A stretch of 64,000 nt of DNA from a bacterium (GTDB lineage Bacteria; Zhuqueibacterota; Zhuqueibacteria; Residuimicrobiales; Krinioviventaceae): positions 3,520,001 to 3,584,000 of the forward strand of contig OY843751.1 of assembly GCA_963693055.1 (NCBI GenBank), in the 5' to 3' direction. This document shows, piece after piece, positions 19,992 through 36,145 of the stretch (positions are counted from its first letter, which is position 1; each line of letters starts with the position of its first letter). Under the pieces are notes generated by a model. That model saw only the letters and a program-made list of their open reading frames with translations, was not told where the DNA came from and did no database searches. Position numbers and translations under genes: made by a program.

Positions 19992-20915
19992 TTATTCCTC
20001 TTGTGCTTGTATTTGTTCTAAACTGCTTATAGTAACGGTTGATAGTTTACGATCAATTCGTCTGTTCAAACCGGTTAATACATTACCAGGGCCAACTTCA
20101 TAAAAGGTTTCAGCACCATTTAAGGCCATTGCCTGAATGGTTTGGGTCCATAACACCGGACTAGACAGTTGGCTGGCTAATAATTTTCTAATTTCAGTTA
20201 CATCGCTGGCTTTTTTTGCAGTGACATTCGAGTAAAGATCAATCTGAGGTTCTCTCAAGTCCACAGCATCCAGTTTCTGATTAAATTCAGCCAGAGCCGG
20301 TTCCATTAGTGGTGAATGAAACGCACCACTTACCTTAAGTTCAATAGCTCGTTTGGCGCCATTTTCCTGAGAGAGCTGTATAGCTGCCTGCACACCTTCA
20401 ATTGTACCGGAAATAACAACCTGCCCCGGAGAATTGTAATTCGCTACTCCAACAACACCTTTATCGGATGCATGTTTACAAACAGATTCAACCTGTTTAG
20501 TATCCATACCTATTATGGCAGCCATTGTACCTTTTTGATAATTAGATGCGTCTTGCATCAATGTGCCACGTTTTTGAACAATTTCCAAACCACTTTTAAA
20601 ATCAAGTGAACCTGCAGCAGCCAGTGCCGAGAACTCACCCAAACTGTGTCCCGCAACCATACTGGGTTTAACATTTCGTTCAGCTAAAAGCTCAAACATA
20701 ATAAAACTATTAACAAAAATTGCCGGTTGCGTAAAGCTGGTGGTATTTAATTGATCTTCCGGCCCATTGAAACACAATTCAGCCAGATCATAACCTAAAA
20801 TATCGTTTGCCTGTTGAAAGCGTGTACGAACGGATTCGAATGTATTATACACATCCTGTCCCATTCCAACAAACTGGGAACCTTGTCCCGGAAATATAAA
20901 AGCTAAATTACTCAA
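19992..20915 (-). CDS. fabD: Malonyl-CoA:ACP transacylase
   Basis: FPGQGSQ, GHSLGE, VSGAFHS. Confidence 0.97.
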   Translation of the reverse strand: MSNLAFIFPGQGSQFVGMGQDVYNTFESVRTRFQQANDILGYDLAELCFNGPEDQLNTTSFTQPAIFVNSFIMFELLAERNVKPSMVAGHSLGEFSALAAAGSLDFKSGLEIVQKRGTLMQDASNYQKGTMAAIIGMDTKQVESVCKHASDKGVVGVANYNSPGQVVISGTIEGVQAAIQLSQENGAKRAIELKVSGAFHSPLMEPALAEFNQKLDAVDLREPQIDLYSNVTAKKASDVTEIRKLLASQLSSPVLWTQTIQAMALNGAETFYEVGPGNVLTGLNRRIDRKLSTVTISSLEQIQAQEE

Positions 20916-21934
20916 AGAGAACCACCTACCTGTTGTCTAAGCTTTTCTCGCTCTAACCGAAGTTCTTTGATATGTGCCAAGGCTTGAAAATACAAGTTTT
21001 TATTTTTCAATGCAATTGCTTTTTGAAACTCTTTTTCAGCGCTATCAAAATCGCCAACTACCTGAAATGCAAGCCCTAAATTGTAATGCGCTTTGGGGTC
21101 TTGAGGAGTTTGTTTCACTGCTGCTTTAAAAGCATCAAGCGCCTCATCCCATAATCCATTTTTAGCATATTGCACACCTACTTTGACCATGCCTTTACCA
21201 TCTTCAAGCTGATGTTTTTCCTGAACCAGGTGGGGTGCAATCTGGTGAGCAAATTCTTTAACCATTTCTGACATTAGATCATTTAAAATAGCATCACGGG
21301 CTTTTAAATCTCCACGACCGTTAACAATTTTACCGCTGTTAAAAGATTCACTTTTAGCATTAGAAGCTAATAGTTCTCCGGTTTCGACATTTACCATTCG
21401 AAAGGTAACTGCTGCGGTACCGCGTCTTATCTTGTATTCCTGATCAACCAGAACAGTTTTTGTAATTTCTTCTCTTACTTTTTTATTATTTTTAGTAACC
21501 ACACGGTATTTTCCGGTGCCTACTTTTTTCTGTACTTTTTCTCTACCAACCTCATCGGGTTCTACACGGTATGTTACAATATCTCCAAAGATCAATCCAT
21601 CTACACCCAACAACTGACCAACCTGACGTGCTGTAGATTCGTCTATCACACCGGTCATGGCAAGTTCATGTTCTTTTAATATTTGATCTACTTTGCTCCG
21701 TTCAAATATTTGAAAAAACTTGCTGTTCAACAACTCTGATGTAAGCATGCTGGAAGCAAGAGTGCCTGAATTTTCAGGGCCTGAGAAATCGAGAATTGCT
21801 ATTTTTTTAATTCCCTTGATATCAATTTCTGCGGGTTTATAAACAGGCAGGTTTACAACGGTTGGAGCACAGCCGGTGAGAAACAATAAAATTGAAAAAA
21901 ATAAAATAAAAACAGATTTTACCTTCATAATCAT
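20912..21934 (-). CDS. Lipoprotein with CsgG/HfaB-like domain and C-terminal TPR repeats
   Basis: Lipobox LTGC; IAILDF..FQIFERSKVDQILKE..GQLLGVDGLIFG..RMVNVETGE (CsgG/TolB_N-like); AHYNLGLAF..GDFDSAEKEFQKAI TPR. Confidence 0.8.
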   Translation of the reverse strand: MIMKVKSVFILFFSILLFLTGCAPTVVNLPVYKPAEIDIKGIKKIAILDFSGPENSGTLASSMLTSELLNSKFFQIFERSKVDQILKEHELAMTGVIDESTARQVGQLLGVDGLIFGDIVTYRVEPDEVGREKVQKKVGTGKYRVVTKNNKKVREEITKTVLVDQEYKIRRGTAAVTFRMVNVETGELLASNAKSESFNSGKIVNGRGDLKARDAILNDLMSEMVKEFAHQIAPHLVQEKHQLEDGKGMVKVGVQYAKNGLWDEALDAFKAAVKQTPQDPKAHYNLGLAFQVVGDFDSAEKEFQKAIALKNKNLYFQALAHIKELRLEREKLRQQVGGSL

Positions 21935-24073: not shown

Positions 24074-24256
24074 TTATGATTCTCTTGGAAGAAATATCGA
24101 ACGGCCTTTGTAAAAACCACAATTAGGACACGCACGATGCGGCAGCTTGGGCTGGTGACAATTTGAACATTCTGTAACGGTAGGAGCTGCAGATTTCCAG
24201 TTTGCTCTGCGTTTATCACGACGTGATTTCGACTGTCTTCTTTTAGGTAATGCCAT
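24074..24256 (-). CDS. rpmF: 50S ribosomal protein L32
   Basis: MALPKRRQSKSRRDKRR, CxxC...HRACxxCG.Y. Confidence 0.97.
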   Translation of the reverse strand: MALPKRRQSKSRRDKRRANWKSAAPTVTECSNCHQPKLPHRACPNCGFYKGRSIFLPRES

Positions 24257-24273
24257 TTTATCCTCGTTAATGT

Positions 24274-24780
24274 TTAAGAGTTAAATTTAATATTTTTCAG
24301 GGCTTCCCAACGCGGATCAATTGTATCTGATTTACAATCACAAGTTCCTGCATTGAGATTCTTGCCGCACTTGCTGCACAGCCCTTTACAACTTTCATCA
24401 CAAACATGTTTATACGGAACCGCTATCAACAATGCCTGCCTTACAGATTCCGAAACATCTATAATATTTGAAGAATCAACAATAGGATAGACATCATCTT
24501 CACTCTCATTGTAAATATCCGCATTGGGAGTAAAGATAATATCAATCTCTTCATCAACATCATATTGAAAAGGTTCTAAACAGCGGTCACATTCCAACAT
24601 GGCATTGGTTACAAGGTGTGTTTTTAAAAAATACTCTGTTCCAACCTTGTTGATATTAAATTCAATATTAATATCTTTGCTAAACTCTTTATTTTCTTCA
24701 AGACCTAATTCTTCGGCCGTGACTGTCCTTTTATCAGAAGTAATATTATCTGAAAAAACGGATATATCTAACTTTAACAC
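24274..24780 (-). CDS. yceD: DUF177/YceD family protein
   Basis: CDRCL, C.ESCKGLCSKCGKNLN, DPRWEALK; upstream of rpmF. Confidence 0.92.
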   Translation of the reverse strand: MLKLDISVFSDNITSDKRTVTAEELGLEENKEFSKDINIEFNINKVGTEYFLKTHLVTNAMLECDRCLEPFQYDVDEEIDIIFTPNADIYNESEDDVYPIVDSSNIIDVSESVRQALLIAVPYKHVCDESCKGLCSKCGKNLNAGTCDCKSDTIDPRWEALKNIKFNS

Positions 24781-24869: not shown

Positions 24870-25283
24870 TCACAAAACTTCAGATGTACTGAAAAAGAAA
24901 GATATCTCTTTTTCTGCATTTTCAGGCGAGTCTGAACCGTGAACAACATTGCGTCTTGTATTTTCGGCAAATTCCTTACGAATAGTACCCTCGGCAGCTT
25001 TATCAGGATCCGTGCTTCCCATGAGTTTGCGGTAATCTTGCACCGCGTCATCTTTTTCCAGCACAAGTAATATACTGGGCCCTTCTGTCATAAAATCAAT
25101 CAATGGTTCATAAAAAGGACGCCCTTTATGAACACTATAGAACGCTTCAGCTACAGCTTTGGTCATTTTTGTCATTTTACAGGCAATCACTTTAAAACCT
25201 GCCGCCTCAATTTTGGCGATAATTTTTCCACTATGTCCCTGCTCTACTCCATCCGGCTTTAAAATAGCTAATGTACGCTCCAT
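24870..25283 (-). CDS. ndk: Nucleoside diphosphate kinase
   Basis: ERTLAILKPD, GTIR, NVVHGSDS. Confidence 0.97.
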   Translation of the reverse strand: MERTLAILKPDGVEQGHSGKIIAKIEAAGFKVIACKMTKMTKAVAEAFYSVHKGRPFYEPLIDFMTEGPSILLVLEKDDAVQDYRKLMGSTDPDKAAEGTIRKEFAENTRRNVVHGSDSPENAEKEISFFFSTSEVL

Positions 25284-25315
25284 AATATGGTTCTCCTTTT
25301 ATAACAAGTACGGGT

Positions 25316-25864
25316 TTACAGTTTTTCTCCTTCTTCAAGACCAACTTGAAAAGCTTTAAAATTAAGCTCTTCAGTGCCTTTGGGCACTCTGGCTTCTATT
25401 GCCTGTCGAAGGGCATCCTGTGAAACAATCTTGGATACATTTGCAATAATCCCCAACGCAACAATATTTGCAACAAGGGAACGCCCCACTTTTTCAGTAG
25501 CTAAACGAATGATTGGCGCCTTGATCACTTTGAATCCAGGTTTTTCACCGGGATTCACAGCATCCTGATCAATTATTACAACACCCTCCTTTTTAACATC
25601 ATGACTGTATTTATCAAAAGATTCCTGCGTTAATGCCAGCAGCAAATCAATATTTACAGCCTTGGGGTAATCAATATCGCCATCAGAAATAATAACTTCT
25701 GAACGACTTGCGCCGCCACGGGCCTCGGGACCATAAGATTGACTTTGTGTAGCATTCAACTCATCATAAATGGCTGCTGCTTCTGCAAGAATCTTACCGG
25801 CCAATACCAATCCTTGGCCTCCCTCACCACTTAAACGGACCTCATAGCGAAAACTCATAACCAT
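25316..25864 (-). CDS. 2-oxoacid:ferredoxin oxidoreductase gamma subunit (Kor/Oor type)
   Basis: SGEGGQG, QSYGPEARGGAS, NIVALG. Confidence 0.93.
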   Translation of the reverse strand: MVMSFRYEVRLSGEGGQGLVLAGKILAEAAAIYDELNATQSQSYGPEARGGASRSEVIISDGDIDYPKAVNIDLLLALTQESFDKYSHDVKKEGVVIIDQDAVNPGEKPGFKVIKAPIIRLATEKVGRSLVANIVALGIIANVSKIVSQDALRQAIEARVPKGTEELNFKAFQVGLEEGEKL

Positions 25865-25882
25865 TGCTCCAAATATTTAATA

Positions 25883-26692
25883 CTATTTATTGTATTGATC
25901 AATAATTTTTTGATATTCTTCACGAAATTCGGGTTTTTCTTCATCAACAAAAATACCCGTAACAATTTTTTCAGCAAGTTCAGCGGGCAACAACTTTTCA
26001 GCCTTTAAAACCGGAATACTGTCAACCTTTTGTTTTTTGAGCATTTCCACGCCATTACCCATCTTGTTTCTGCGTCCATATGTGGTTGGGCAAGGTGTCA
26101 TAACTTCTACAACAGAAAATCCTTTTGTATCAATAGCTTTGGATATATACTTTTCAACCTGCACAGGATTTGCCACCGTTGTTCTTGCAACAAATGAAGC
26201 GCCGGCAGCTTTGGCCAATCCACTAATATTAAAATTATTCTCAGTATTGCCCAATGGTGCAGTACTCGCTTTTCTTCCTGCCGGGGTAGTTGGTGATACC
26301 TGACCACCTGTCATGCCATAAATCTGGTTATTGAACAAAACTACAGTCAAATCTATATTTCTGCGTGCCGCATGGATGTAATGATTTCCACCAATAGAGG
26401 TTGCATCACCATCACCAGTAACAACGATCACATGCAAATGCGGTTTTGCCAGTTTTATACCCGTAGCATAAGTTAATGCACGACCATGGGTTGTGTGCAG
26501 CGTATTAAAATCTACATAACCGGTTAAACGGCTTGAACAACCAATTCCGGAAACCATCACCACTTCATCTTTGTCAAAACCACTTTTATGAACCGCCCGT
26601 ATCAATGATTTGAGTACAATACCATCGCCACACCCAGGACACCAGATTAACGGCAATTTTGATGAACGTAAATAATAATCATAATCAAACAC
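25883..26692 (-). CDS. 2-oxoacid:ferredoxin oxidoreductase beta subunit
   Basis: WCPGCG, SGIGCSSR, TTHGRA, GDGD...NNQIYGMTGGQ TPP motif, PCPT; GTG start at 26692 preferred. Confidence 0.94.
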   Translation of the reverse strand: MFDYDYYLRSSKLPLIWCPGCGDGIVLKSLIRAVHKSGFDKDEVVMVSGIGCSSRLTGYVDFNTLHTTHGRALTYATGIKLAKPHLHVIVVTGDGDATSIGGNHYIHAARRNIDLTVVLFNNQIYGMTGGQVSPTTPAGRKASTAPLGNTENNFNISGLAKAAGASFVARTTVANPVQVEKYISKAIDTKGFSVVEVMTPCPTTYGRRNKMGNGVEMLKKQKVDSIPVLKAEKLLPAELAEKIVTGIFVDEEKPEFREEYQKIIDQYNK

Positions 26693-27818
26693 GGCTTTTT
26701 TCCTTAATAAATTCAAGTATTTCGTAGGGATTAATGGGTTCACCATTATATTTATTGAATGGAGATACCGGAACTTTACCTCTAACAGCCCATTCTACTT
26801 CATGAAACATCTGCCCCATATTTAATTCAGGAACAATCCACTGGTTCACTTTTTCCGTAAACTCTTGAATCACCTCATGCGCAAAAGGCCACAATGTTTT
26901 AAGGCGTAACATTCCAACTTTAATCCCTTCTTCACGTGCCATTTGCAGGGCTTGACGGGCCGAACGGGAAGCGGAACCATACGCCAATATTCCGATCTCA
27001 GCATCATCCATATCTATTAATTCGTAACTAATAATTTCATCTTTACGTTTGGAAATTTTTCGATCTAACCGGTCCATCAAAGCTTTAATTTTAACCGTAT
27101 CATTTGTAGGGAACCCGGTTTCATCATGCGCAAGACCGGTTACATGATACCGGTAACCTGAGCCAAAATCAGCCATGGGTGGTACATCAGACTCTGTCAT
27201 TTTATACGGCAGATAATCATCATGTCCACCTACAGGTCGCTCACGATCAAACACCTCTACATTTTTCAAATCAGGAATACTGACTTTTTCATTCACATGC
27301 CCAATAATCTCATCCAACAATAGTACAACCGGGGTACGAAATCTCTCTGCAAGATTAAATGCACGAATGGTCTCGTCGTAAATCTCTCGTACACTGTTGG
27401 GTGCCAGGGCAATAATTTGATGATCTCCATGGGTACCCCATCTTGCCTGCATAACATCACCCTGAGATGGTAATGTTGGCAATCCGGTGCTTGGGCCACC
27501 ACGCATTACATTTACAATAACACATGGAATTTCTGACATAATTGCGTATCCCAAATTCTCCTGCATAAGAGAAAAACCGGGGCCACTTGTTGCAGTCATA
27601 GTCTTAGTACCGGTTAGCGACGCACCTATAATTGCACCAATAGAAGCAATTTCATCTTCCATTTGAACAAAAACGCCCTTGTGTTTTGGGAGCTCAACTG
27701 CCAGGACTTCGGCAATTTCAGAAGAAGGTGTAATGGGATACCCGGCAAAAAACCGCAATCCGGCTGCAAGAGCAGCTTCTGCACATGCTTCATTCCCTGA
27801 AATAATTTTTGTTTCCAT
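26685..27818 (-). CDS. 2-oxoacid:ferredoxin oxidoreductase alpha subunit (2-oxoglutarate-type)
   Basis: GYPITPSSE, QMEDEIAS, ATSGPGFSL, RGGPSTGLPT, ELNMGQ. Confidence 0.94.
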   Translation of the reverse strand: METKIISGNEACAEAALAAGLRFFAGYPITPSSEIAEVLAVELPKHKGVFVQMEDEIASIGAIIGASLTGTKTMTATSGPGFSLMQENLGYAIMSEIPCVIVNVMRGGPSTGLPTLPSQGDVMQARWGTHGDHQIIALAPNSVREIYDETIRAFNLAERFRTPVVLLLDEIIGHVNEKVSIPDLKNVEVFDRERPVGGHDDYLPYKMTESDVPPMADFGSGYRYHVTGLAHDETGFPTNDTVKIKALMDRLDRKISKRKDEIISYELIDMDDAEIGILAYGSASRSARQALQMAREEGIKVGMLRLKTLWPFAHEVIQEFTEKVNQWIVPELNMGQMFHEVEWAVRGKVPVSPFNKYNGEPINPYEILEFIKEKSRV

Positions 27819-28042
27819 TATTTTTTACCCTCCCCAGCTTCCGGTTCGGCTGTAACATCAATAGCAAAATCCGGACAATACAATTCACACAAGCCACATG
27901 CAGTACATGCGCTTAGATTTTTGACATGTGCAATTCCATCCCGCATTTCTAAAACATCATGCGGGCAAAATTCTACACAAATCTCACATCCCTTACACCA
28001 GGATGGTTTGACCCTGACGTCAATATTTTTGTATTTAGCCAT
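27818..28042 (-). CDS. 2-oxoacid:ferredoxin oxidoreductase delta (2x[4Fe-4S] ferredoxin) subunit
   Basis: CKGCEICVEFCP and CTACGLCELYCPDFAI; ATG 28042 overlaps the arcC stop region. Confidence 0.92.
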   Translation of the reverse strand: MAKYKNIDVRVKPSWCKGCEICVEFCPHDVLEMRDGIAHVKNLSACTACGLCELYCPDFAIDVTAEPEAGEGKK

Positions 28043-29015
28043 GATGACTTTCCATTTGATTATGAGCAATCACAGTGCCTGTTTTCCCTTCTAATGCGTC
28101 TGCAAGTTTTTCTACTGAACAAATACAGACCTTAAGGCCTCCATTCTCTAAAAACTGAATTGCGGCCTTGATTTTGGGTCCCATGCTTCCCATGGGAAAC
28201 TGTCCTTCTTTAAGATAATGTCGAGCTGTATTAATATCAAGGTAATCGAGGAACTTTTGTTCTGCTTGCCTATAATTTACGGCGACTTTTTCCACTGCGG
28301 TGAGTATATAAAGCTCCGTTGCACCAATATCATGGGCCAAAACTGCAGAAGCCAGGTCTTTATCTATTACAGCATCCACACCTTCCAAAGAGCCGTCCTT
28401 TTCACGATAAACCGGAATACCACCTCCACCAGCAGCAATGACAAGTACACCCTGATGCACAAGCTGCCTGATTATTTCCGCTTCTACAATTGCCAGAGGA
28501 TGCGGGGATGGCACCACCCTGCGATATCCTCTGCCGGAATCTTCTTTTAAAGTATAACCACGTTCATCCTGAAGAGATTCCACTTGATTTTCTTTATAAA
28601 AAGGACCAACAAACTTGGCAGGGTCATGAATTGAAGGATCATCTTTTGAAACAAGCACCTGGGTCAATATTGTAGCTACTTTACGTTCAATATTTCGATC
28701 CAAAAGCTTGTTTTGCAGGGTCTGTTCAATCATGTAACCCATACCACCTTCAAGATCAGCAACAATCACACCAAGGGGTACCGGCGGCACCATGTGACGT
28801 GCCGCCTCTACCCGTATCAATGCATTGCCAACCTGAGGGCCATTACCATGTGTTATTGCCAATTTATATCCGCGTTCAACCAGTTCAACCACTCCAAACA
28901 ATGCTTTACGCGTATTGGCAAACTGTTGATAAATGTTGCCCTCTTCAAATTCGCGAGTAATCGCATTGCCGCCCAAAGCAACAACAGCAATGCGGTTTTT
29001 ATCTTGCTTTGCCAT
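28035..29015 (-). CDS. arcC: Carbamate kinase
   Basis: ALGGNA, THGNGPQVG, RRVVPSP, GGGGIPV, AVIDKD, GSMGPK. Confidence 0.96.
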   Translation of the reverse strand: MAKQDKNRIAVVALGGNAITREFEEGNIYQQFANTRKALFGVVELVERGYKLAITHGNGPQVGNALIRVEAARHMVPPVPLGVIVADLEGGMGYMIEQTLQNKLLDRNIERKVATILTQVLVSKDDPSIHDPAKFVGPFYKENQVESLQDERGYTLKEDSGRGYRRVVPSPHPLAIVEAEIIRQLVHQGVLVIAAGGGGIPVYREKDGSLEGVDAVIDKDLASAVLAHDIGATELYILTAVEKVAVNYRQAEQKFLDYLDINTARHYLKEGQFPMGSMGPKIKAAIQFLENGGLKVCICSVEKLADALEGKTGTVIAHNQMESHHG

Positions 29016-29017
29016 TT

Positions 29018-30328
29018 CTAGATATTCTTTAATGCGTCATGCAGGGTTAATGCACCTATTTCCTGTAAATCATAATAAACCCGTACAGACGGCTTTTTAA
29101 TATTAATCACACGGTTCAGATCTATTGGTGTGCCTATAATTACTGTGTCACAATCTGTTGCATTGATTGTAGCTTCAAGGTCACGCAATTGTTCTTCACC
29201 ATAACCCATTGCTGGCAATAATTGACCAATTCCGGGATAAATGTCAAAAGTTTCCTGCAACCTGCCTTTGAGATACGGACGCGGATCAACCAAACGTTCA
29301 GCACCCCAGCGCTCTGCAGCTACTACACCCGCGCCATAGGTCATTTCTCCATGCGTCAATGTGGGGCCATCTTCAACAACAAGTACCCGTTTGCCACGAA
29401 TCAACTCAGGATCATCAACTCGAATTGGTGATGCGGCATCTATGATCTGCGCTTTGGGATTAAAGGTACGAACATTATCACGCACATCTTCAATATCTTC
29501 AAATTCTGCTTCAACAACTTTGTTGATTATTACATAATCCGCCATTCTAAGATTAGTTTCACCAGGATGATAAGAAATTTCGTGCCCTGATCTTAATGGA
29601 TCCGCAACCACAATATGAACATCTGGTTTATAAAATGGAGTATCATTATTACCACCATCCCACAAGATCACATCAGCTTCTTTTTCCGCTTCAGCAAGGA
29701 TAGCACCATAATCTACACCTGCATAAATAACAGAACCACTGGCAATATGGGGTTCATATTCTTCCATTTCTTCAATGGTACAATTGTGTTTTTTCAAATC
29801 ATCCAGAGTTGCAAACCGTTGCACTTTTTGCGCGGCTAGATCACCATACGGCATAGGGTGACGGATAGCTACAACTTTTTTACCTTTTTCTTTCAAGATT
29901 TCTGCAACCCTGCGTGTGGTTTGACTTTTACCGCAACCTGTCCGTACTGCGCAAATAGATACAACTGGTACTTTGGATTTAAGCATGGTGTATTTGGGTC
30001 CCAGCAAATTAAAGCTGGCGCCCAGCGCATTTACTTCTGATGCTTTGTTCATAACATACTCGTGCGGTACATCGCTGTATGAAAAGAACACTTCATCAAT
30101 ATCATGATCACGGACCAATTTTGACAGGTCTTCTTCAGGATGTATGGGAATACCATTTGGGTACAAGGGACCTGCCAGCTCCGCGGGGTATTTCCTCCCC
30201 TCAATATCCGGAATCTGGGTAGCTGTAAAAGCTACTACCTCGTACTCTTGGTGTTCGCGAAAGTAAGTGTTAAAGTTGTGAAAATCGCGTCCTGCTGCTC
30301 CCATGATCAATGCTTTACGCTTTGCCAT
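29018..30328 (-). CDS. arcE: Arginine synthetase-like P-loop protein (ArcE; family commonly annotated as cyclic 2,3-diphosphoglycerate synthetase-like GTPase)
   Basis: MGAAGRDFHNFN, AFTATQIP, AVRTGCGKSQT P-loop, RHPMPYGDL, TIEE.EEYEP, WDGGNND, EDGPTLTHG, PAMGY; 2 bp from carbamate kinase. Confidence 0.82.
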   Translation of the reverse strand: MAKRKALIMGAAGRDFHNFNTYFREHQEYEVVAFTATQIPDIEGRKYPAELAGPLYPNGIPIHPEEDLSKLVRDHDIDEVFFSYSDVPHEYVMNKASEVNALGASFNLLGPKYTMLKSKVPVVSICAVRTGCGKSQTTRRVAEILKEKGKKVVAIRHPMPYGDLAAQKVQRFATLDDLKKHNCTIEEMEEYEPHIASGSVIYAGVDYGAILAEAEKEADVILWDGGNNDTPFYKPDVHIVVADPLRSGHEISYHPGETNLRMADYVIINKVVEAEFEDIEDVRDNVRTFNPKAQIIDAASPIRVDDPELIRGKRVLVVEDGPTLTHGEMTYGAGVVAAERWGAERLVDPRPYLKGRLQETFDIYPGIGQLLPAMGYGEEQLRDLEATINATDCDTVIIGTPIDLNRVINIKKPSVRVYYDLQEIGALTLHDALKNI

Positions 30329-30353
30329 AACTTACTCCTTTTGGTTTTAGCAT

Positions 30354-30387
30354 AAAAAAAAGGCAGGTGTAGTTTTCACCTGCCTTT
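30354..30387 (-). terminator. Intrinsic terminator after dusB
   Basis: AAAGGCAGGTG...CACCTGCCTTT stem with an 8-U run on the minus strand. Confidence 0.75.
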
Positions 30388-30392
30388 GGTAA

Positions 30393-31337
30393 TTAGTTAA
30401 AATCTTCAGAATGTAAAAAACCGCTCAATGTCTCGTGGACATCTTTATAATTTTTTTGAGTAAATATCCTTTTTCGAATATCTGCGGCTTTTGGCAAGCC
30501 TTTCAGATACGTTGCTATGTGTTTTCGCATAATCAATACGGCCCGATCAGCACCGTACAATTCTTTTGCATATTCCATATGTTTTAGACATCCCGTTAGT
30601 TTCTCCTGCGGAGAAGGCATTACGGGTTCTTTATTTTCATGAATCAGCATTTTAATCTGCTGAAATATCCAGGGATTTCCTCTGGCCGCACGACCGATCA
30701 TAATTCCATCACAACCGGTTTCGTCGTACATGCGCTTGGCATCAAAAGCGGTTTTAATATCACCATTTCCTATTACAGGAATAGATACAGCCTGCTTTAC
30801 CTGGCGTATGATGTCCCAGTCAGATTTACCTTTGAACATCATTTTCTGAGTTCGAGGATGCACCGCAATCATGGCAATGCCAGCATCTTCAAGTATTTTA
30901 GATGCATCCAGCGCAACATTACTGTCCCAACCACTACGAATTTTGGCTGTAACGGGTATATCCGTTACTTTGGTAACAGCATATGCTATGGATTTCATCA
31001 ACTCGAGATCACGCATAATTGCTGAGCCGGCACCACGTTTAACAATCTTTCTTGCCGGACACCCGAAATTTATATCAATGAACGCTGGTTTATAACCGGC
31101 AATAATCTCTACAGCTTTTGCCAGCGTATCTGCCTCGGCCCCAAATACCTGAATACCTACCGGTTGTTCAAATTCCTTAAACACAGCAAGTTCCAAAGTC
31201 TTTTCCTGATACCGGATAATACCATCAGCACTTGCCATTTCCGTGTAAACAATATCGGCGCCATTCTCTTTGCAGAGGCGCCTGAGGGCCAAGTCCGACC
31301 ATCCTGCTAATGGAGCCAAAGCGGATGGTTTGTCCAT
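30393..31337 (-). CDS. dusB: tRNA-dihydrouridine synthase (DusB-like)
   Basis: LAPLAG, YTEM, DINFGCP, KIRSGWD, VHPRT, GNGDI, MIGRA.RGNPW; ATG 31337 preferred. Confidence 0.93.
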   Translation of the reverse strand: MDKPSALAPLAGWSDLALRRLCKENGADIVYTEMASADGIIRYQEKTLELAVFKEFEQPVGIQVFGAEADTLAKAVEIIAGYKPAFIDINFGCPARKIVKRGAGSAIMRDLELMKSIAYAVTKVTDIPVTAKIRSGWDSNVALDASKILEDAGIAMIAVHPRTQKMMFKGKSDWDIIRQVKQAVSIPVIGNGDIKTAFDAKRMYDETGCDGIMIGRAARGNPWIFQQIKMLIHENKEPVMPSPQEKLTGCLKHMEYAKELYGADRAVLIMRKHIATYLKGLPKAADIRKRIFTQKNYKDVHETLSGFLHSEDFN

Positions 31338-31423: not shown

Positions 31424-34400
31424 CTATTTTGCGAACAACATTTTAAATGTATTTTGGAAATCACCAGCCTGCATCTTGACAAAATAAATTCCGGATGCTG
31501 CCAGTGTACCACTATTGGATGTACCATCCCATACTAAACGATGTGAACCTGCCGATTGTTCCGAATTGCACAATTCTTTAACCAGCTCACCTCGGGTATT
31601 AAATATAGTCAACTTTACATTACTTGCACGTGGTACATCATATTCAATGGTTGTATGCGCGTTAAAAGGATTGGGATAATTCTGTCGTAACGCAAATTTT
31701 TTGGGTACAGTTGCATCATCAACCTCAATGGATATAGGACCAAATGAGGTCATGGCACCATCTGTATCAATCTGTTCAATCTTGTAATAAACTGTACCGG
31801 TTTCATGATTACTATTATCAATATACTCGTAATTGTGTTCATTGGTAGATGTTCCGGCACCCGCAATCAATGCTGAATTGATTTTTGTCCAGGGACCCTC
31901 TGCAGTTATAGCACGCATAACATTAAATCCCAGATTGCGGATCTCGGATTTGGTTTGCCATTTCAATACTGCGCCTGTTTCTGCATCATAACTCGCGGAC
32001 AATGAAGCCAGAGTCACAGGTACAATAGAACCCGCACCCGCGGTAACAACCGGTCTGATAATAAAATCATGAGAAGTAATACCGCTCAACCAACCTGAAC
32101 TGGTAAAAATACAAGACCGGTTATCCGGTGTACCATTATTTGATTCACTAAAAATAACCAATTTATCAGCGCTATTTGGAATAGAAAGTACAATATGATA
32201 ATCCTGCCCAGCTTGCACCATAGCGTGCGCATCAAGAAGATTAAAATAATGCATAGAATACTGAGAAACCTGGTCAGAAGCTATTGAAACGGTATGTGTA
32301 CCAGACAACTTGGTGCCGGGCTTACTGTCAGAATTTGTCCAGATCTCAACATCCAGAGTACTAGTAAGAGGATGAACATCATAGTTTGATTGTAACATAT
32401 ATGTATGCACATAAAACCCAGTCACTTGTCCGGTAATAGATGGTGTGAACCTTACAGAAACTTTGGGATATTCGTTCGTGCCATACCCCATACTGACAAC
32501 ACCATCATAATCATCTTGCTCATCATAAACCAGCACTTCAGTTTCTGCAGAACTATTTGATTGTGCATCACCCATGGCTTTAAATACATTCAGTTTACCA
32601 TAGCCCCATGATGGATCCCAGACAGTTGAACCGGTATAATCATCCAGGTCTGCATTTTCTGTAATGAGTGATAATAACTGGCTGTGGTCTAAATTGGGAT
32701 TCTGTTCAAATAAAAGCGCAACAGCACCGGTAACAACCGGGCACGCCATACTGGTGCCCTGCATTAATATATGTTGTTGACCAGGCATTATTCTGCTTGT
32801 TGAAGGAGAACTCCATTGTGACATTGCAGAAGCAATTTTATCACCGGGAGCTGCAATATCCGGTTTTTCACGATTATCTCTGGTAGGTCCAACACTGCTA
32901 AAATCAGAAATTTCGCCTAAATACTGAGCAGAGCCTCCCCAATACATGTCACTGTTATAATTCAACCAATACCAGCGGTGTGTAGATGAAGCCACCGAAA
33001 TCACTTCTGCAGCGGTAGCGGTGTTGGTATATTCTGAATCAGAGCCGGTTAAATCAACTGAAGCATAATCGGTACCAATAACAGCATCAGTAAACCACAT
33101 ATGGTAGCCTAGATTCATACCATAGGTACTGGTTAATGTAAGTGTCCAGGTTCCAACCGCAGGATTGACATTTGTTACTCCATCATAAATTCTCACCGTA
33201 ACATAACGATCACCATTATTTCCATCCATATAATTCAACATTTTGACAGAACCGTCAGACCGGTCCGCATCACGGTCATCTCCAATAGTAGTTGTTACCA
33301 AATCACCATTGGGCGACTTTAACATTGCAGTAATATTCGCATTATCATCAAACCATACCTCAAACCTTAGATCATCATTATTGGTACTGCTTTCTGGTGT
33401 GTAAGAGGGAATGGTGAATGTTATGGTTGTTGAACTGTTTGCAGGTACGGTACCTGCTTTATGTATAAGATCGTTACCTTCATTACCCGCTGATTTTACA
33501 ACAGCCCTTCCCGCGTCAACAAACGAATTAATTGCCACACTGCTGTTATCTGTACCATCATGCGGACCACTTTGTGATCCCGCACTGTAATTCACAACAA
33601 CAGGTTTACCTAGAGACGCAGCTTTTTCTCTGCAATACGTCAGACCATCAATAAAATCCGAAGTGTAAAAACTTCCATCGCCTCCCTTAATAACGATGAT
33701 ATCCGCTTTGGGCGCCATACCTGCATAATTGATTGTTGCCAAAGAAGAGCCATTTCCTGCGGCAGTACCGGCAACATGGGTACCATGGCCATCAATATCT
33801 TTTTGGCGAACAAATCCGGATGTAACACCATTCATATCATCTTCAATTTGTGCCTGGTTATATTCCACTCCAAAATTACAACCGGATTCTGAAGGAGCAG
33901 TTTCACTGCCGGTAGCATTCAGCGTTTGGTCCCAAATGTAAAGGATACGGCTTTTTGTAGGATCGTCAGGATCACGAAAATCTCCATGTTCGTAATCGAT
34001 ACCCGTATCATAAATACAAACAATAACATCCTCACCTTGGTATTCTGTATTATTCAGAAATCCGGAATGCAGCATATCTGCACCAATCAACCCTCTGGTA
34101 ACGTCGTTATTGATTTTGTCAATTCGGTCTGCTCTCAGAGATTTAACACTGTTTAATGTTGCTGCAGATAACAATTGATCAATTGTAGCGTGGACCGTAA
34201 CAAAATTGGGTAAAATAGAATTAACCTGTATTCCTTTTGTTACCAGTTCTCCCGGATTTTGGGTATAAATAATTGCTCTGATTTGATCACTGTTTGCAAG
34301 ACGGGCATTTACATATGCCTGTGGAACAGATGTTTTATTTTCTGATTTATCAATCATAACACTTTTTAACTGCGGTTCAAATTTATCAACCTGCTCTGAA

Positions 34401-34492
34401 CTCAAAATATCGAACAATGGATTTTGTGCCGCATAAAGAAACATTGGCAGAATAATTAAAATACGCATACATCTTGCCACAAATGGAACCAT
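31424..34492 (-). CDS. Secreted S8 (subtilisin-like) serine peptidase with inserted beta-domain and C-terminal FlgD-Ig/T9SS-like sorting domain
   Basis: Signal peptide; catalytic triad YDTGID, GHGTHVAG, GTSMACP; oxyanion SAGNEG; C-terminal QNYPNPFN...WDG...ASGIYF. Confidence 0.92.
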   Translation of the reverse strand: MVPFVARCMRILIILPMFLYAAQNPLFDILSSEQVDKFEPQLKSVMIDKSENKTSVPQAYVNARLANSDQIRAIIYTQNPGELVTKGIQVNSILPNFVTVHATIDQLLSAATLNSVKSLRADRIDKINNDVTRGLIGADMLHSGFLNNTEYQGEDVIVCIYDTGIDYEHGDFRDPDDPTKSRILYIWDQTLNATGSETAPSESGCNFGVEYNQAQIEDDMNGVTSGFVRQKDIDGHGTHVAGTAAGNGSSLATINYAGMAPKADIIVIKGGDGSFYTSDFIDGLTYCREKAASLGKPVVVNYSAGSQSGPHDGTDNSSVAINSFVDAGRAVVKSAGNEGNDLIHKAGTVPANSSTTITFTIPSYTPESSTNNDDLRFEVWFDDNANITAMLKSPNGDLVTTTIGDDRDADRSDGSVKMLNYMDGNNGDRYVTVRIYDGVTNVNPAVGTWTLTLTSTYGMNLGYHMWFTDAVIGTDYASVDLTGSDSEYTNTATAAEVISVASSTHRWYWLNYNSDMYWGGSAQYLGEISDFSSVGPTRDNREKPDIAAPGDKIASAMSQWSSPSTSRIMPGQQHILMQGTSMACPVVTGAVALLFEQNPNLDHSQLLSLITENADLDDYTGSTVWDPSWGYGKLNVFKAMGDAQSNSSAETEVLVYDEQDDYDGVVSMGYGTNEYPKVSVRFTPSITGQVTGFYVHTYMLQSNYDVHPLTSTLDVEIWTNSDSKPGTKLSGTHTVSIASDQVSQYSMHYFNLLDAHAMVQAGQDYHIVLSIPNSADKLVIFSESNNGTPDNRSCIFTSSGWLSGITSHDFIIRPVVTAGAGSIVPVTLASLSASYDAETGAVLKWQTKSEIRNLGFNVMRAITAEGPWTKINSALIAGAGTSTNEHNYEYIDNSNHETGTVYYKIEQIDTDGAMTSFGPISIEVDDATVPKKFALRQNYPNPFNAHTTIEYDVPRASNVKLTIFNTRGELVKELCNSEQSAGSHRLVWDGTSNSGTLAASGIYFVKMQAGDFQNTFKMLFAK

Positions 34493-34619: not shown

Positions 34620-35963
34620 TTATTTTAATAGTGAAACTTTTGTATATTTTGAATATCCACCAGTTTTCAACTTTACCAGATAAACACCACTTGCGGCATT
34701 GATTCCGCTACTTGTTTTCCCATCCCATTTAATTTCATGACGACCGGCAAACATACCATTATTCAAAAGGGTTTTTATTAATCGGCCCTGAATATCATAT
34801 ACCTGTAGCGAAACATTTCCATCCTGAGCTAGATCAAAAGTAATAGTAGTTTCTGGATTAAAAGGATTGGGGTATGCCGGATATAATTGATGGGTATCAA
34901 TCACTGATACCAGAGTAACATCTACAACCTGGCTATATTCTTTGTCACCATTTACGGCAACGTTAACAATACAATACTGATATGTATTATCACTTTTAAC
35001 TGATTCATCAGTATAGGTATATTGAGTGGTGTGGGATACAGTTCCCTGTCCGATTAATTCAGAATTATATGTATAGCTATCAATAGTCTGCCATTCAGCA
35101 CCAACACCCTGACGACGCATGATCTCAAAACCCAGATTGTCAGTCTCACTTGCAGTAATCCATTGCAATTCTACCGCTTTACCGTCTTTAACAGGATTGG
35201 CCTCAAACAGGGCCATCTCTACGGGTAAAGAAAGATCTCCATTGACAAACCAGGACCAACCTGGTCCTGTTATTGTACCATCATTGCTGCCATAACTATC
35301 AGTAGCACTGCTTCCGGAGCCATCATCAAATTTATAATAAGAAACCATATTGGCATAGTTGGGGTGTGAAGCCGTCACAGGGGCATTCTTCCAGGTACTG
35401 ATAGTTGATTGGATTAAAGCTGTATTCCATATTCTTACTTCATCAATATCACCAATAAAACCTCTGGCAGTATCAGATGGACGTTCAGCAATCAATAGAT
35501 TATTTGCGGTTGATGTAATCGTAGTTGCTGTAAATGTGCTATTCCCAGCACTCACTCCATTAATATAAATATAAATAGCAGTACCATTAAATGTAACAGC
35601 AACATGGCTCCAAACCAAAGGAGTTAGAGGTGAAGTACTGTAAACCACTTTTGGGCCAGCTTCGGTATTTATAACAACTAATACTGTTTGTTCAACTTCA
35701 TTATAAGTTACAAGGCTAACATTCACTCCTGTAGAAGCCTCATCACCATCAGAAATAATTACTCCTGCACCACCTACAAGAAAATAATTTGTTTCATTGG
35801 GACGTACCCAGGCTTCAACTGTCAAGCTTGAAGTTGGTAAAAAGGTTGCACCACAATCGACATAATCATTTCCCGCAAAATCAATTGCCCATCCAGCACC
35901 CTGAGCATATAAACCGGATGACCACAATAGTAAAAGGATAAATACAGTAATCCTTGTTTTCAT
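34620..35963 (-). CDS. Secreted LamG/concanavalin A-like domain protein with C-terminal FlgD-Ig/T9SS-like sorting domain
   Basis: Signal peptide MKTRIT..YAQ after GGAGG; TVEAWV, WSHVAVT, YINGV, GDIDEVRIWN; AYPNPFNP...WDG...ASGVY. Confidence 0.85.
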   Translation of the reverse strand: MKTRITVFILLLLWSSGLYAQGAGWAIDFAGNDYVDCGATFLPTSSLTVEAWVRPNETNYFLVGGAGVIISDGDEASTGVNVSLVTYNEVEQTVLVVINTEAGPKVVYSTSPLTPLVWSHVAVTFNGTAIYIYINGVSAGNSTFTATTITSTANNLLIAERPSDTARGFIGDIDEVRIWNTALIQSTISTWKNAPVTASHPNYANMVSYYKFDDGSGSSATDSYGSNDGTITGPGWSWFVNGDLSLPVEMALFEANPVKDGKAVELQWITASETDNLGFEIMRRQGVGAEWQTIDSYTYNSELIGQGTVSHTTQYTYTDESVKSDNTYQYCIVNVAVNGDKEYSQVVDVTLVSVIDTHQLYPAYPNPFNPETTITFDLAQDGNVSLQVYDIQGRLIKTLLNNGMFAGRHEIKWDGKTSSGINAASGVYLVKLKTGGYSKYTKVSLLK

Positions 35964-36145
35964 AACGTCCTCCGAAAAAAATCTACAAATTGTATGCACA
36001 TGCATAAAAAAATCAATATATTGAAATTACTAATTTTTAATTCAACAGTCAACAAATAAAATTGAACCACCATAAAAACACATTCAACTCACTAAATATA
36101 TTGAATATACATATTATTGCAATCCATTGCGGATCTGTTTCAAAT

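Follow-up and report, generated by a model that had tools for sequence, protein, structure and literature searches.

A predicted arginine synthetase and carbamate kinase precede a 2-oxoacid:ferredoxin oxidoreductase and nucleoside-diphosphate kinase in an inherited gene string of Zhuqueibacterota

The DNA analysed here is a 64,000-nucleotide (nt) stretch of contig OY843751.1 (assembly GCA_963693055.1, positions 3,520,001 to 3,584,000; hereafter the window, to which positions refer) from a Krinioviventaceae bacterium of the phylum Zhuqueibacterota (candidate division KSB1), whose genome is a single 6.54-Mb contig with 100% completeness. Seven genes occupy its minus strand from 30328 to 24870 in the order arcE-arcC-korD-korA-korB-korG-ndk, and they probably form one general ATP-supply operon that joins an arginine synthetase (ArcE) and a carbamate kinase (ArcC) with a housekeeping segment of the tricarboxylic acid (TCA) cycle, consisting of KorDABG, Ndk, and often SucCD. 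The first gene, arcE (29018..30328, 436 amino acids (aa)), is followed by arcC (28035..29015, 326 aa), which passes the TIGR00746 cut-off of 358.25 with 361.4 bits. The oxidoreductase genes are korD/oorD for the delta subunit (27818..28042, 74 aa, two CxxCxxCxxxC motifs for 2x[4Fe-4S], best model OorD below its cut-off), korA/oorA for the alpha subunit (26685..27818, 377 aa, YPITP at residue 27, 584.6 bits against NF006412 with a cut-off of 411), korB/oorB for the thiamine pyrophosphate (TPP)-binding beta subunit (25883..26692, 269 aa, best PDB match 8YS5_C), and korG/oorC for the gamma subunit (25316..25864, 182 aa, PF01558, 222.6 bits against NF006323, below the cut-off of 235). The start of korB is the GTG at 26692 and not the ATG at 26746, with residue 2 aligning to residue 3 of 8YS5_C. 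The last gene, ndk (24870..25283, 137 aa), encodes a nucleoside-diphosphate kinase (NF001908, 193.3 bits, cut-off 155). From arcE to ndk, the junctions measure +2, -8, -1, -8, +18, and +32 nt, and the flanking gaps are wider (+64 nt between dusB and arcE, +89 nt between ndk and yceD). The contiguity of all seven open reading frames (ORFs) with overlaps or gaps of at most 32 bp, claimed in an original prediction from the DNA letters, is thereby confirmed; the word "fused" in its title holds for adjacent genes only, as there is no protein fusion.

The product of the first gene is 64–66% identical over its full length to ArcE proteins of Thermococcales. With L008, a Thermococcus sp. orthologue that serves as a stand-in for the characterized TK2200 of T. 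kodakarensis and is not TK2200 itself, the alignment is gapless (283/433 identical residues, 65%, 597 bits). L008 was retrieved by the TK2200 reverse primer, which matched five Thermococcales orthologues, T. kodakarensis not among them, while a scan with the forward primer gave no match; its N-terminus equals the forward-primer translation, and its C-terminus carries the reverse-primer residues. Through L008, the window protein shows the full-length similarity by which TK2200-like proteins are recognized (E<1e-100, >380 aa; PMC11032458). Identity to three cyclic 2,3-diphosphoglycerate (cDPG) synthetase paralogues from the same Thermococcales genomes is 22–26% over 91–264 aa. In a quick IQ-TREE search with 41 rows (the careful search is incomplete), 38 ArcE rows, including the window protein, are split from the three cDPG synthetases with an SH-aLRT of 100, the latter standing apart on a very long branch. 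Five motifs are common to the window protein and all four Thermococcales ArcE proteins and occur in none of the three cDPG synthetases; the GAAGRDFHNFN, RTGCGKSQT, and RHPMPYG motifs, on which membership of the ArcE family had been proposed, start at residues 10, 129, and 156. The phylogeny and the identity values thus bear out this family assignment.

Neither Pfam nor NCBIfam, which hold no ArcE model, yields a match for the protein, and a PDB search with it returned no ArcE structure. Databases name its homologues GTPase or cDPG synthase, in agreement with the earlier remark that the family is usually misnamed, and the closest named homologues belong mostly to candidate division KSB1, with a few from Calditrichota or Actinomycetota. 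We conclude that the first gene is an arginine synthetase, with the reaction Arg + ADP + Pi -> citrulline + NH3 + ATP predicted from the 65% identity. This reaction, stated correctly in the original prediction, is described for TK2200 in PMC11032458, where it is reversible, has a delta-G of about -6.8 kJ/mol, and also proceeds with CDP (38%), UDP, and GDP. The same source finds ArcE in a wide range of bacteria, Caldithrix among them, and reports only a weak similarity to cDPG synthetase. The experimental ArcE papers found in our literature search concern T. kodakarensis only, i.e. the enzyme was assayed in an archaeon.

The remaining steps of an ArcE pathway are encoded elsewhere in the host genome (contig G000:C1). 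Ornithine carbamoyltransferase (OTC), reported as missing from the block, is indeed not there; it was sought and found as the single argF gene located after hslU (G000:C1:1855347), which exceeds the TIGR00658 cut-off and whose product is 55–56% identical to Thermococcales OTC. No arginine deiminase (ADI) was found in the complete genome, as anticipated for arcA, and ArcE therefore co-occurs with ArcC and OTC but without ArcA. The genome also encodes ornithine aminotransferase (RocD, TIGR01885), pyrroline-5-carboxylate (P5C) dehydrogenase (TIGR01237), three glutamate dehydrogenases (GDH), SucC, and SucD, all at or near curated cut-offs, which completes the route from ornithine via P5C and glutamate to 2-oxoglutarate. 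Two of the GDH genes flank the gene for a 1001-aa PPDK_N-domain protein (L124, G000:C1:1009947-1015757). Biosynthetic genes are present for ArgG, ArgH, ArgC, ArgD, and CarAB (CarB). Since OTC, the route from ornithine to 2-oxoglutarate, SucCD, and ArgG/ArgH are present and ADI was not found, ArcE is likely used catabolically in this organism, in line with the argument of PMC11032458 for organisms in which ArgG/ArgH exist. Agmatinase is the sole arginase-family gene product of the genome, and a cluster of pyruvoyl arginine decarboxylase, homospermidine-biosynthesis protein, and agmatinase genes (G000:C1:3008774-3011334; L126, 2775-5335) is a second fate of arginine.

The replacement of ADI by ArcE extends through the phylum. 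The arcE gene occurs in 152 of 167 genomes, and a near-full-length ADI in 1/167; 12 of the 13 PF02274 matches are partial (42–78 bits) and were by inference excluded from this count. The sole near-full-length ADI (G076:C25:18070-19174) is divided between two frames, and its genome encodes arcE-arcC as well.

The four kor genes supply all parts of a four-subunit 2-oxoacid:ferredoxin oxidoreductase (a delta subunit with 2x[4Fe-4S], an alpha subunit with YPITP, a TPP-binding beta subunit, and a gamma subunit) in the gene order D-A-B-G. The Oor models rank first for the beta and delta subunits, second for alpha, and third for gamma; for beta, the scan used an ORF 18 residues longer than the GTG-start korB. 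The best PDB match of the beta subunit is 8YS5_C (E 3.3e-85, next match 4.5e-50), and the alpha subunit matches 1YD7 best and 8YS5_A second (E 7.1e-104), 8YS5 being the Helicobacter pylori OorDABC enzyme (PMC12307629). An Arg is also found in 8YS5 and 6N2N at the position of beta Arg55, which corresponds to Lys49b of StOFOR. The residue is not diagnostic; in StOFOR1, K49I abolished activity with 2-oxoglutarate and K49R favoured pyruvate (PMC5020499). A pyruvate:ferredoxin oxidoreductase (PFOR) and a VorB-type enzyme are encoded as well in the genome. 2-Oxoglutarate is the likely candidate substrate of Kor, mainly because sucCD neighbours kor in relatives, and as no SucA exceeds its cut-off in the host genome, a general role in the TCA cycle is likely for Kor.

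We compared the arcE loci of 100 of the 152 arcE-positive genomes (6 kb upstream, 12 kb downstream), picked for long contigs and spread over 24 of 26 families; many are cut by contig ends, so the counts are lower bounds, and since related genomes are not independent, neither these nor the control counts below represent a statistical test. Downstream of arcE we found arcC (n = 80), ndk (n = 70), yceD (n = 59), korA (n = 41), sucC and sucD (n = 37), ackA (n = 9), and the malic enzyme gene (n = 9), with dusB upstream in 52 loci. The exact seven-gene order is found in 23 loci from five families. Nine loci have both kor and sucCD; here, the string arcE-arcC-sucC-sucD-korDABG is spread over five other families, of which two lie outside the class of the window organism. 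Within the taxonomic order of the host, 29/37 loci contain korA and 0/37 sucC, and in family f9 all 13 loci encode arcE-arcC-sucCD-ndk. The phylum-wide pattern is a string with optional parts, arcE-arcC-[sucCD]-[korDABG]-ndk-yceD-rpmF. The simplest reading, drawn without a species tree, is an ancestral dusB-arcE-arcC-sucCD-korDABG-ndk-yceD-rpmF-plsX string that was trimmed in each lineage. The gene order in the window is thus old and inherited, and the location of sucCD elsewhere in this lineage leaves arcC overlapping korD.

Several families carry additions to this string. The longest form, in f10 (L067, L068, L244), reads sucCD-korDABG-ndk-hbd-ackA-nfnAB, adding genes for 3-hydroxybutyryl-CoA dehydrogenase, acetate kinase, and NfnAB-like proteins. 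In f11–f13 (L219 4674-10155 and most of L216-L232), korDABG is followed by the gene for a conserved ~990-aa protein, whose sole match is a C-terminal GlnD_UR_UTase domain, and then by folE2, ndk, and an acetate kinase gene.

Whether Kor and Ndk depend on arcE was addressed with two sets of control genomes. Among 20 genomes with no arcE match (n = 13) or with arcE elsewhere (n = 7), ndk was found in 18. Upstream DNA is available at 16 ndk loci, where the gene in front is sucD in 14, korG in one, and neither in one; several of the contigs end shortly upstream of ndk, and of the loci with about 9 kb upstream, 8/9 show the sucD/korG pattern too. In 20 genomes chosen for a KorA orthologue (≥60% identity) away from arcE, ndk follows the displaced kor genes within 8 kb in 13 loci, and the 5' neighbours include gdh in two loci, sucCD in one, and arcE in none. 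Because 15/16 ndk loci keep their sucD or korG neighbour, and displaced kor has ndk in 13/20 loci and arcE in 0/20, Kor-Ndk constitutes a housekeeping segment of the TCA cycle; it can do without arcE, and ArcE-ArcC was joined to it long ago. Three loci, L238 (G147), L252 (G142), and L248 (G009), keep arcC-sucC-sucD-ndk without arcE in front; in G147 and G142, no arcE was matched and PF02274 gave partial matches only, which bears on where their carbamate kinase would obtain carbamoyl phosphate.

Upstream of the block lies dusB (30393..31337, minus strand, TIGR00737 above cut-off), a neighbour conserved with the string, and between dusB and arcE a terminator-like hairpin of 11 pairs followed by a T run (30359..30387, minus strand). 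The region 30320-30470 folds with z = -3.25, and the hairpin sequence has two genomic sites, i.e. it is no genome repeat. This hairpin is the likely 5' boundary of the block. The 64-nt gap between dusB and arcE leaves no room for a leader peptide. A crude test for a hairpin before arcE was positive in 24/98 relatives, which indicates that the feature is lineage-limited; comparable hairpins lie equally near arcE in about nine relatives from families f1 and f4. Five further minus-strand terminator-like matches fall inside the block, none of which has an uninterrupted U run; altogether there are 12 such matches, close to the chance level (8.1 ± 3.3). With gaps of at most 32 nt and no unbroken U-run terminator inside, arcE to ndk are probably transcribed together. 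Downstream, yceD and rpmF (24074..24780, minus strand, PF02620) head the plsX-fab-rnc string that anchors the block.

From the gene identities and neighbourhoods observed here, we infer the activities of the block and their direction as follows. ArcE would convert arginine, ADP, and Pi to citrulline, NH3, and ATP, as demonstrated for TK2200; the distant OTC would then yield ornithine and carbamoyl phosphate, from which ArcC would form a second ATP per arginine. Ornithine aminotransferase, P5C dehydrogenase, and GDH, whose genes are present, could carry the carbon skeleton to 2-oxoglutarate. KorDABG, standing in for 2-oxoglutarate dehydrogenase, would form succinyl-CoA, CO2, and reduced ferredoxin by oxidation of 2-oxoglutarate of any origin, ornithine-derived glutamate included, SucCD would add a third ATP, and Ndk would pass phosphate to other nucleoside diphosphates and so balance the nucleoside triphosphates. 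The original prediction had one transcript coupling the ATP-yielding arginine steps to Kor and Ndk. Co-transcription is probable and the genes for the route are in the genome, which supports part of this claim, whereas oxidation of the arginine skeleton as the purpose of Kor and Ndk is not supported as worded, given that the string persists without arcE, the linking genes are scattered, and no SucA was found.

Several observations weigh against a general ATP-supply operon of this kind. The curated cut-offs of OorA, OorB, OorC, and OorD are not reached (scores/cut-offs of 470.5/579, 336.5/364, 126.5/216, and 51.4/93, respectively), and a second, two-subunit 2-oxoacid oxidoreductase of the host could fill the TCA role. 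Only about 25 nt separate the hairpin at 30387-30359 from the arcE start, which is hardly enough for a promoter, and a promoter scan stayed at the chance level (35 found, 26.2 ± 5.0 expected), with none explaining arcE; the gene may be served by an overlapping promoter of its own or by read-through of the hairpin. No terminator was found 3' of ndk, which makes for a soft 3' boundary. Finally, a P5C dehydrogenase gene lies directly 5' of arcE in 7/80 metagenome loci, which suggests more arginine-specific selection than a general operon assumes. These loci (L141, L142, L189, L192, L195, L198, L203; several from Marinimicrobia) have the order P5C dehydrogenase-arcE-(arcC)-sucCD; the dehydrogenases belong to two subfamilies, and the four that were scanned are all above curated cut-offs (three TIGR01236, one TIGR01237).

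This arrangement leads to the best-surviving alternative, a dedicated arginine-to-succinate catabolic operon, which extends the original prediction by SucCD. Selection would here link ArcE, ArcC, Kor, SucCD, and Ndk so that arginine yields reduced ferredoxin and as many as three ATP by substrate-level phosphorylation; we regard this reading as possible but doubtful. It draws on the two subfamilies of P5C dehydrogenase before arcE, on the presence of at least one of sucC, korA, or ndk beside arcE in 85/100 loci, and on the junction lengths. Across relatives, with gene starts estimated by alignment, junction medians within the block are 0–43 nt, and the outer junctions are longer (ndk-yceD median 102 nt, minimum 58; dusB-arcE median 120). 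Junctions newly made by gene loss remain short (arcE-korD 12–63 nt in 5/5, arcC-korD median 32, arcC-ndk median 65). Moreover, arcE-arcC-sucCD remain together where kor-ndk depart, and in f20-f26, the arcE-(arcC)-ndk group has parted from yceD and acquired an ackA or a malic enzyme gene. The tight junctions after gene losses, together with P5C dehydrogenase beside arcE in Marinimicrobia, make real co-regulation of the block plausible. However, argF, rocD, and the P5C dehydrogenase, gdh, and sucCD genes are scattered in the host genome, all far from the block; the TCA part survives without arcE; and the functionally unrelated dusB (52/100) and yceD-rpmF-plsX (59/100) are conserved with the block as well. 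No ArgR match was found in the host genome, and none of the seven genes encodes an OTC, a transporter, or a regulator, as an arcABC-like operon would.

The metagenome loci argue in the same direction. In 40 arcE loci with at least 4 kb downstream, from a sample of 80 (the best 80 of 580), we found arcC (n = 16), sucC (n = 13), ndk (n = 12), and korA (n = 1), and 26/40 lack all of sucC, kor, and ndk. Among the proteins of the sucCD-ndk form are some named Marinimicrobia. A broader version of the same idea, that KSB1 and sister lineages of the Fibrobacterota–Chlorobiota–Bacteroidota (FCB) group (Marinimicrobia and others) selectively keep an undescribed operon [P5C dehydrogenase]-arcE-arcC-sucCD-korDABG-ndk(-ackA) in which each arginine would yield three ATP and reduced ferredoxin, is likewise possible but doubtful. 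If true, arginine would rank among the main energy sources of these uncultured phyla, and the hairpin in front of arcE may gate the operon by attenuation.

It is improbable that ArcE is mainly anabolic or a supplier of carbamoyl phosphate, with its position before Kor and Ndk irrelevant to energy metabolism. The TK2200 reaction is reversible with its delta-G of about -6.8 kJ/mol, ArcE supplies carbamoyl phosphate in T. kodakarensis (PMC13260591), and in the window's order arcE is present in 43/43 genomes, while 8/43 have no arcC match. Yet ArgG, ArgH, and CarAB make both roles unnecessary in the host, argG is found in 20/23 chosen relatives, and arcC begins 2 nt after arcE. The arcC-less genomes include G077, G079, and G103, and some keep arcE-korDABG-ndk; in L013 (G083), arcC runs over two frames, which may reflect an assembly error. 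Three genomes with arcE but no argG match (G055, G123, and G039; 97%, 96%, and 89% complete) are candidates for ArcE as an arginine biosynthetic enzyme.

We consider it highly improbable that the oxidoreductase acts on another 2-oxoacid, or synthesizes 2-oxoglutarate reductively, and so has no downstream link to arginine. The sub-cut-off OorA, OorB, and OorC scores, a top alpha match (1YD7) labelled just "2-keto acid", and the non-diagnostic Arg55 would agree with this, but sucCD lies immediately 5' of kor in nine loci from five families, gdh lies 5' of displaced kor in 2/20 loci, the D-A-B-G build and the best beta match are those of H. pylori Oor, and PFOR and VorB-type enzymes are encoded separately. 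The database labels GTPase and cDPG synthetase, together with a weak PDB match to the cDPG synthetase 9SXB (E 3e-4, residues 205-322), can practically be dismissed for the first gene: cDPG synthetase resembles ArcE in length and in having a P-loop but is only distantly homologous, full-length orthology to the archaeal enzymes is refuted by the 22–26% partial identity against 64–66% to ArcE, and the five ArcE motifs are missing from all three paralogues.

The enzymes of the block are all of known kinds. The pathway of T. kodakarensis (ArcE-ArcB-ArcC; TK2200, TK0871, TK2158; PMC11032458, PMC13260591) shares ArcE (65%), carbamate kinase, OTC (55–56%), and the lack of ADI. In contrast, the window block is bacterial, has arcE and arcC adjacent and followed by korDABG-ndk, and belongs to a host with the ArgG/ArgH and CarAB that T. 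kodakarensis lacks, whose ornithine can reach glutamate. H. pylori OorDABC (PDB 8YS5; PMC12307629) has the corresponding subunits D, A, B, and C/G and an Arg in the GCSxR motif, but the window Kor remains below the curated Oor cut-offs and has other neighbours. The arginine deiminase operon (arcABC/arcD) likewise leads from arginine via citrulline to ornithine and from carbamoyl phosphate to ATP and shares carbamate kinase, whereas here ArcE replaces ArcA for one ATP more, and the block has no OTC, antiporter, or regulator. The sucABCD operon of Escherichia coli clusters 2-oxoglutarate oxidation with succinyl-CoA synthetase, as do the relatives with sucCD-korDABG; the latter differ by a ferredoxin-linked Kor in place of a dehydrogenase complex and by the attached ndk and arcE-arcC, with sucCD detached in the host.

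In agreement with the earlier statement that no description of this layout is known, our literature search, outside the scope of which lie most subscription papers, found none pairing arcE with kor, sucCD, or ndk. The legend of Fig. S2B in PMC11032458, which concerns arcE clusters, lists arc genes and antiporters only, and the accessible text of a KSB1 paper (PMC11683472) names the Calvin–Benson–Bassham cycle and contains no "kor", "oxoglutarate", or "rTCA". With arcE in 152/167 genomes of the phylum, nearly always replacing ADI, an arginine route that yields ATP is overlooked in metabolic reconstructions of KSB1. Should ArcE be tied to Kor, SucCD, and Ndk by regulation, the block would be a compact readout of non-respiratory ATP making in these uncultured bacteria; if it is merely inherited order, the result is a useful annotation correction and nothing beyond.

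Other features of the window and the host genome are of minor relevance to the block. A CsgG/TPR protein gene lies between fabH and fabD (20912-21934, minus strand), a position it also has in 10/100 relative loci. Upstream of dusB, the minus strand encodes a secreted S8 protease (31424-34492) and a LamG protein (34620-36005), each with a FlgD-Ig/type IX secretion system (T9SS)-like C-terminal domain; the proximity of a protease to an amino-acid-catabolic block may be due to chance. Finally, a tRNA-SeC gene (G000:C1:2437525-2437620) indicates that the host organism probably makes selenoproteins.

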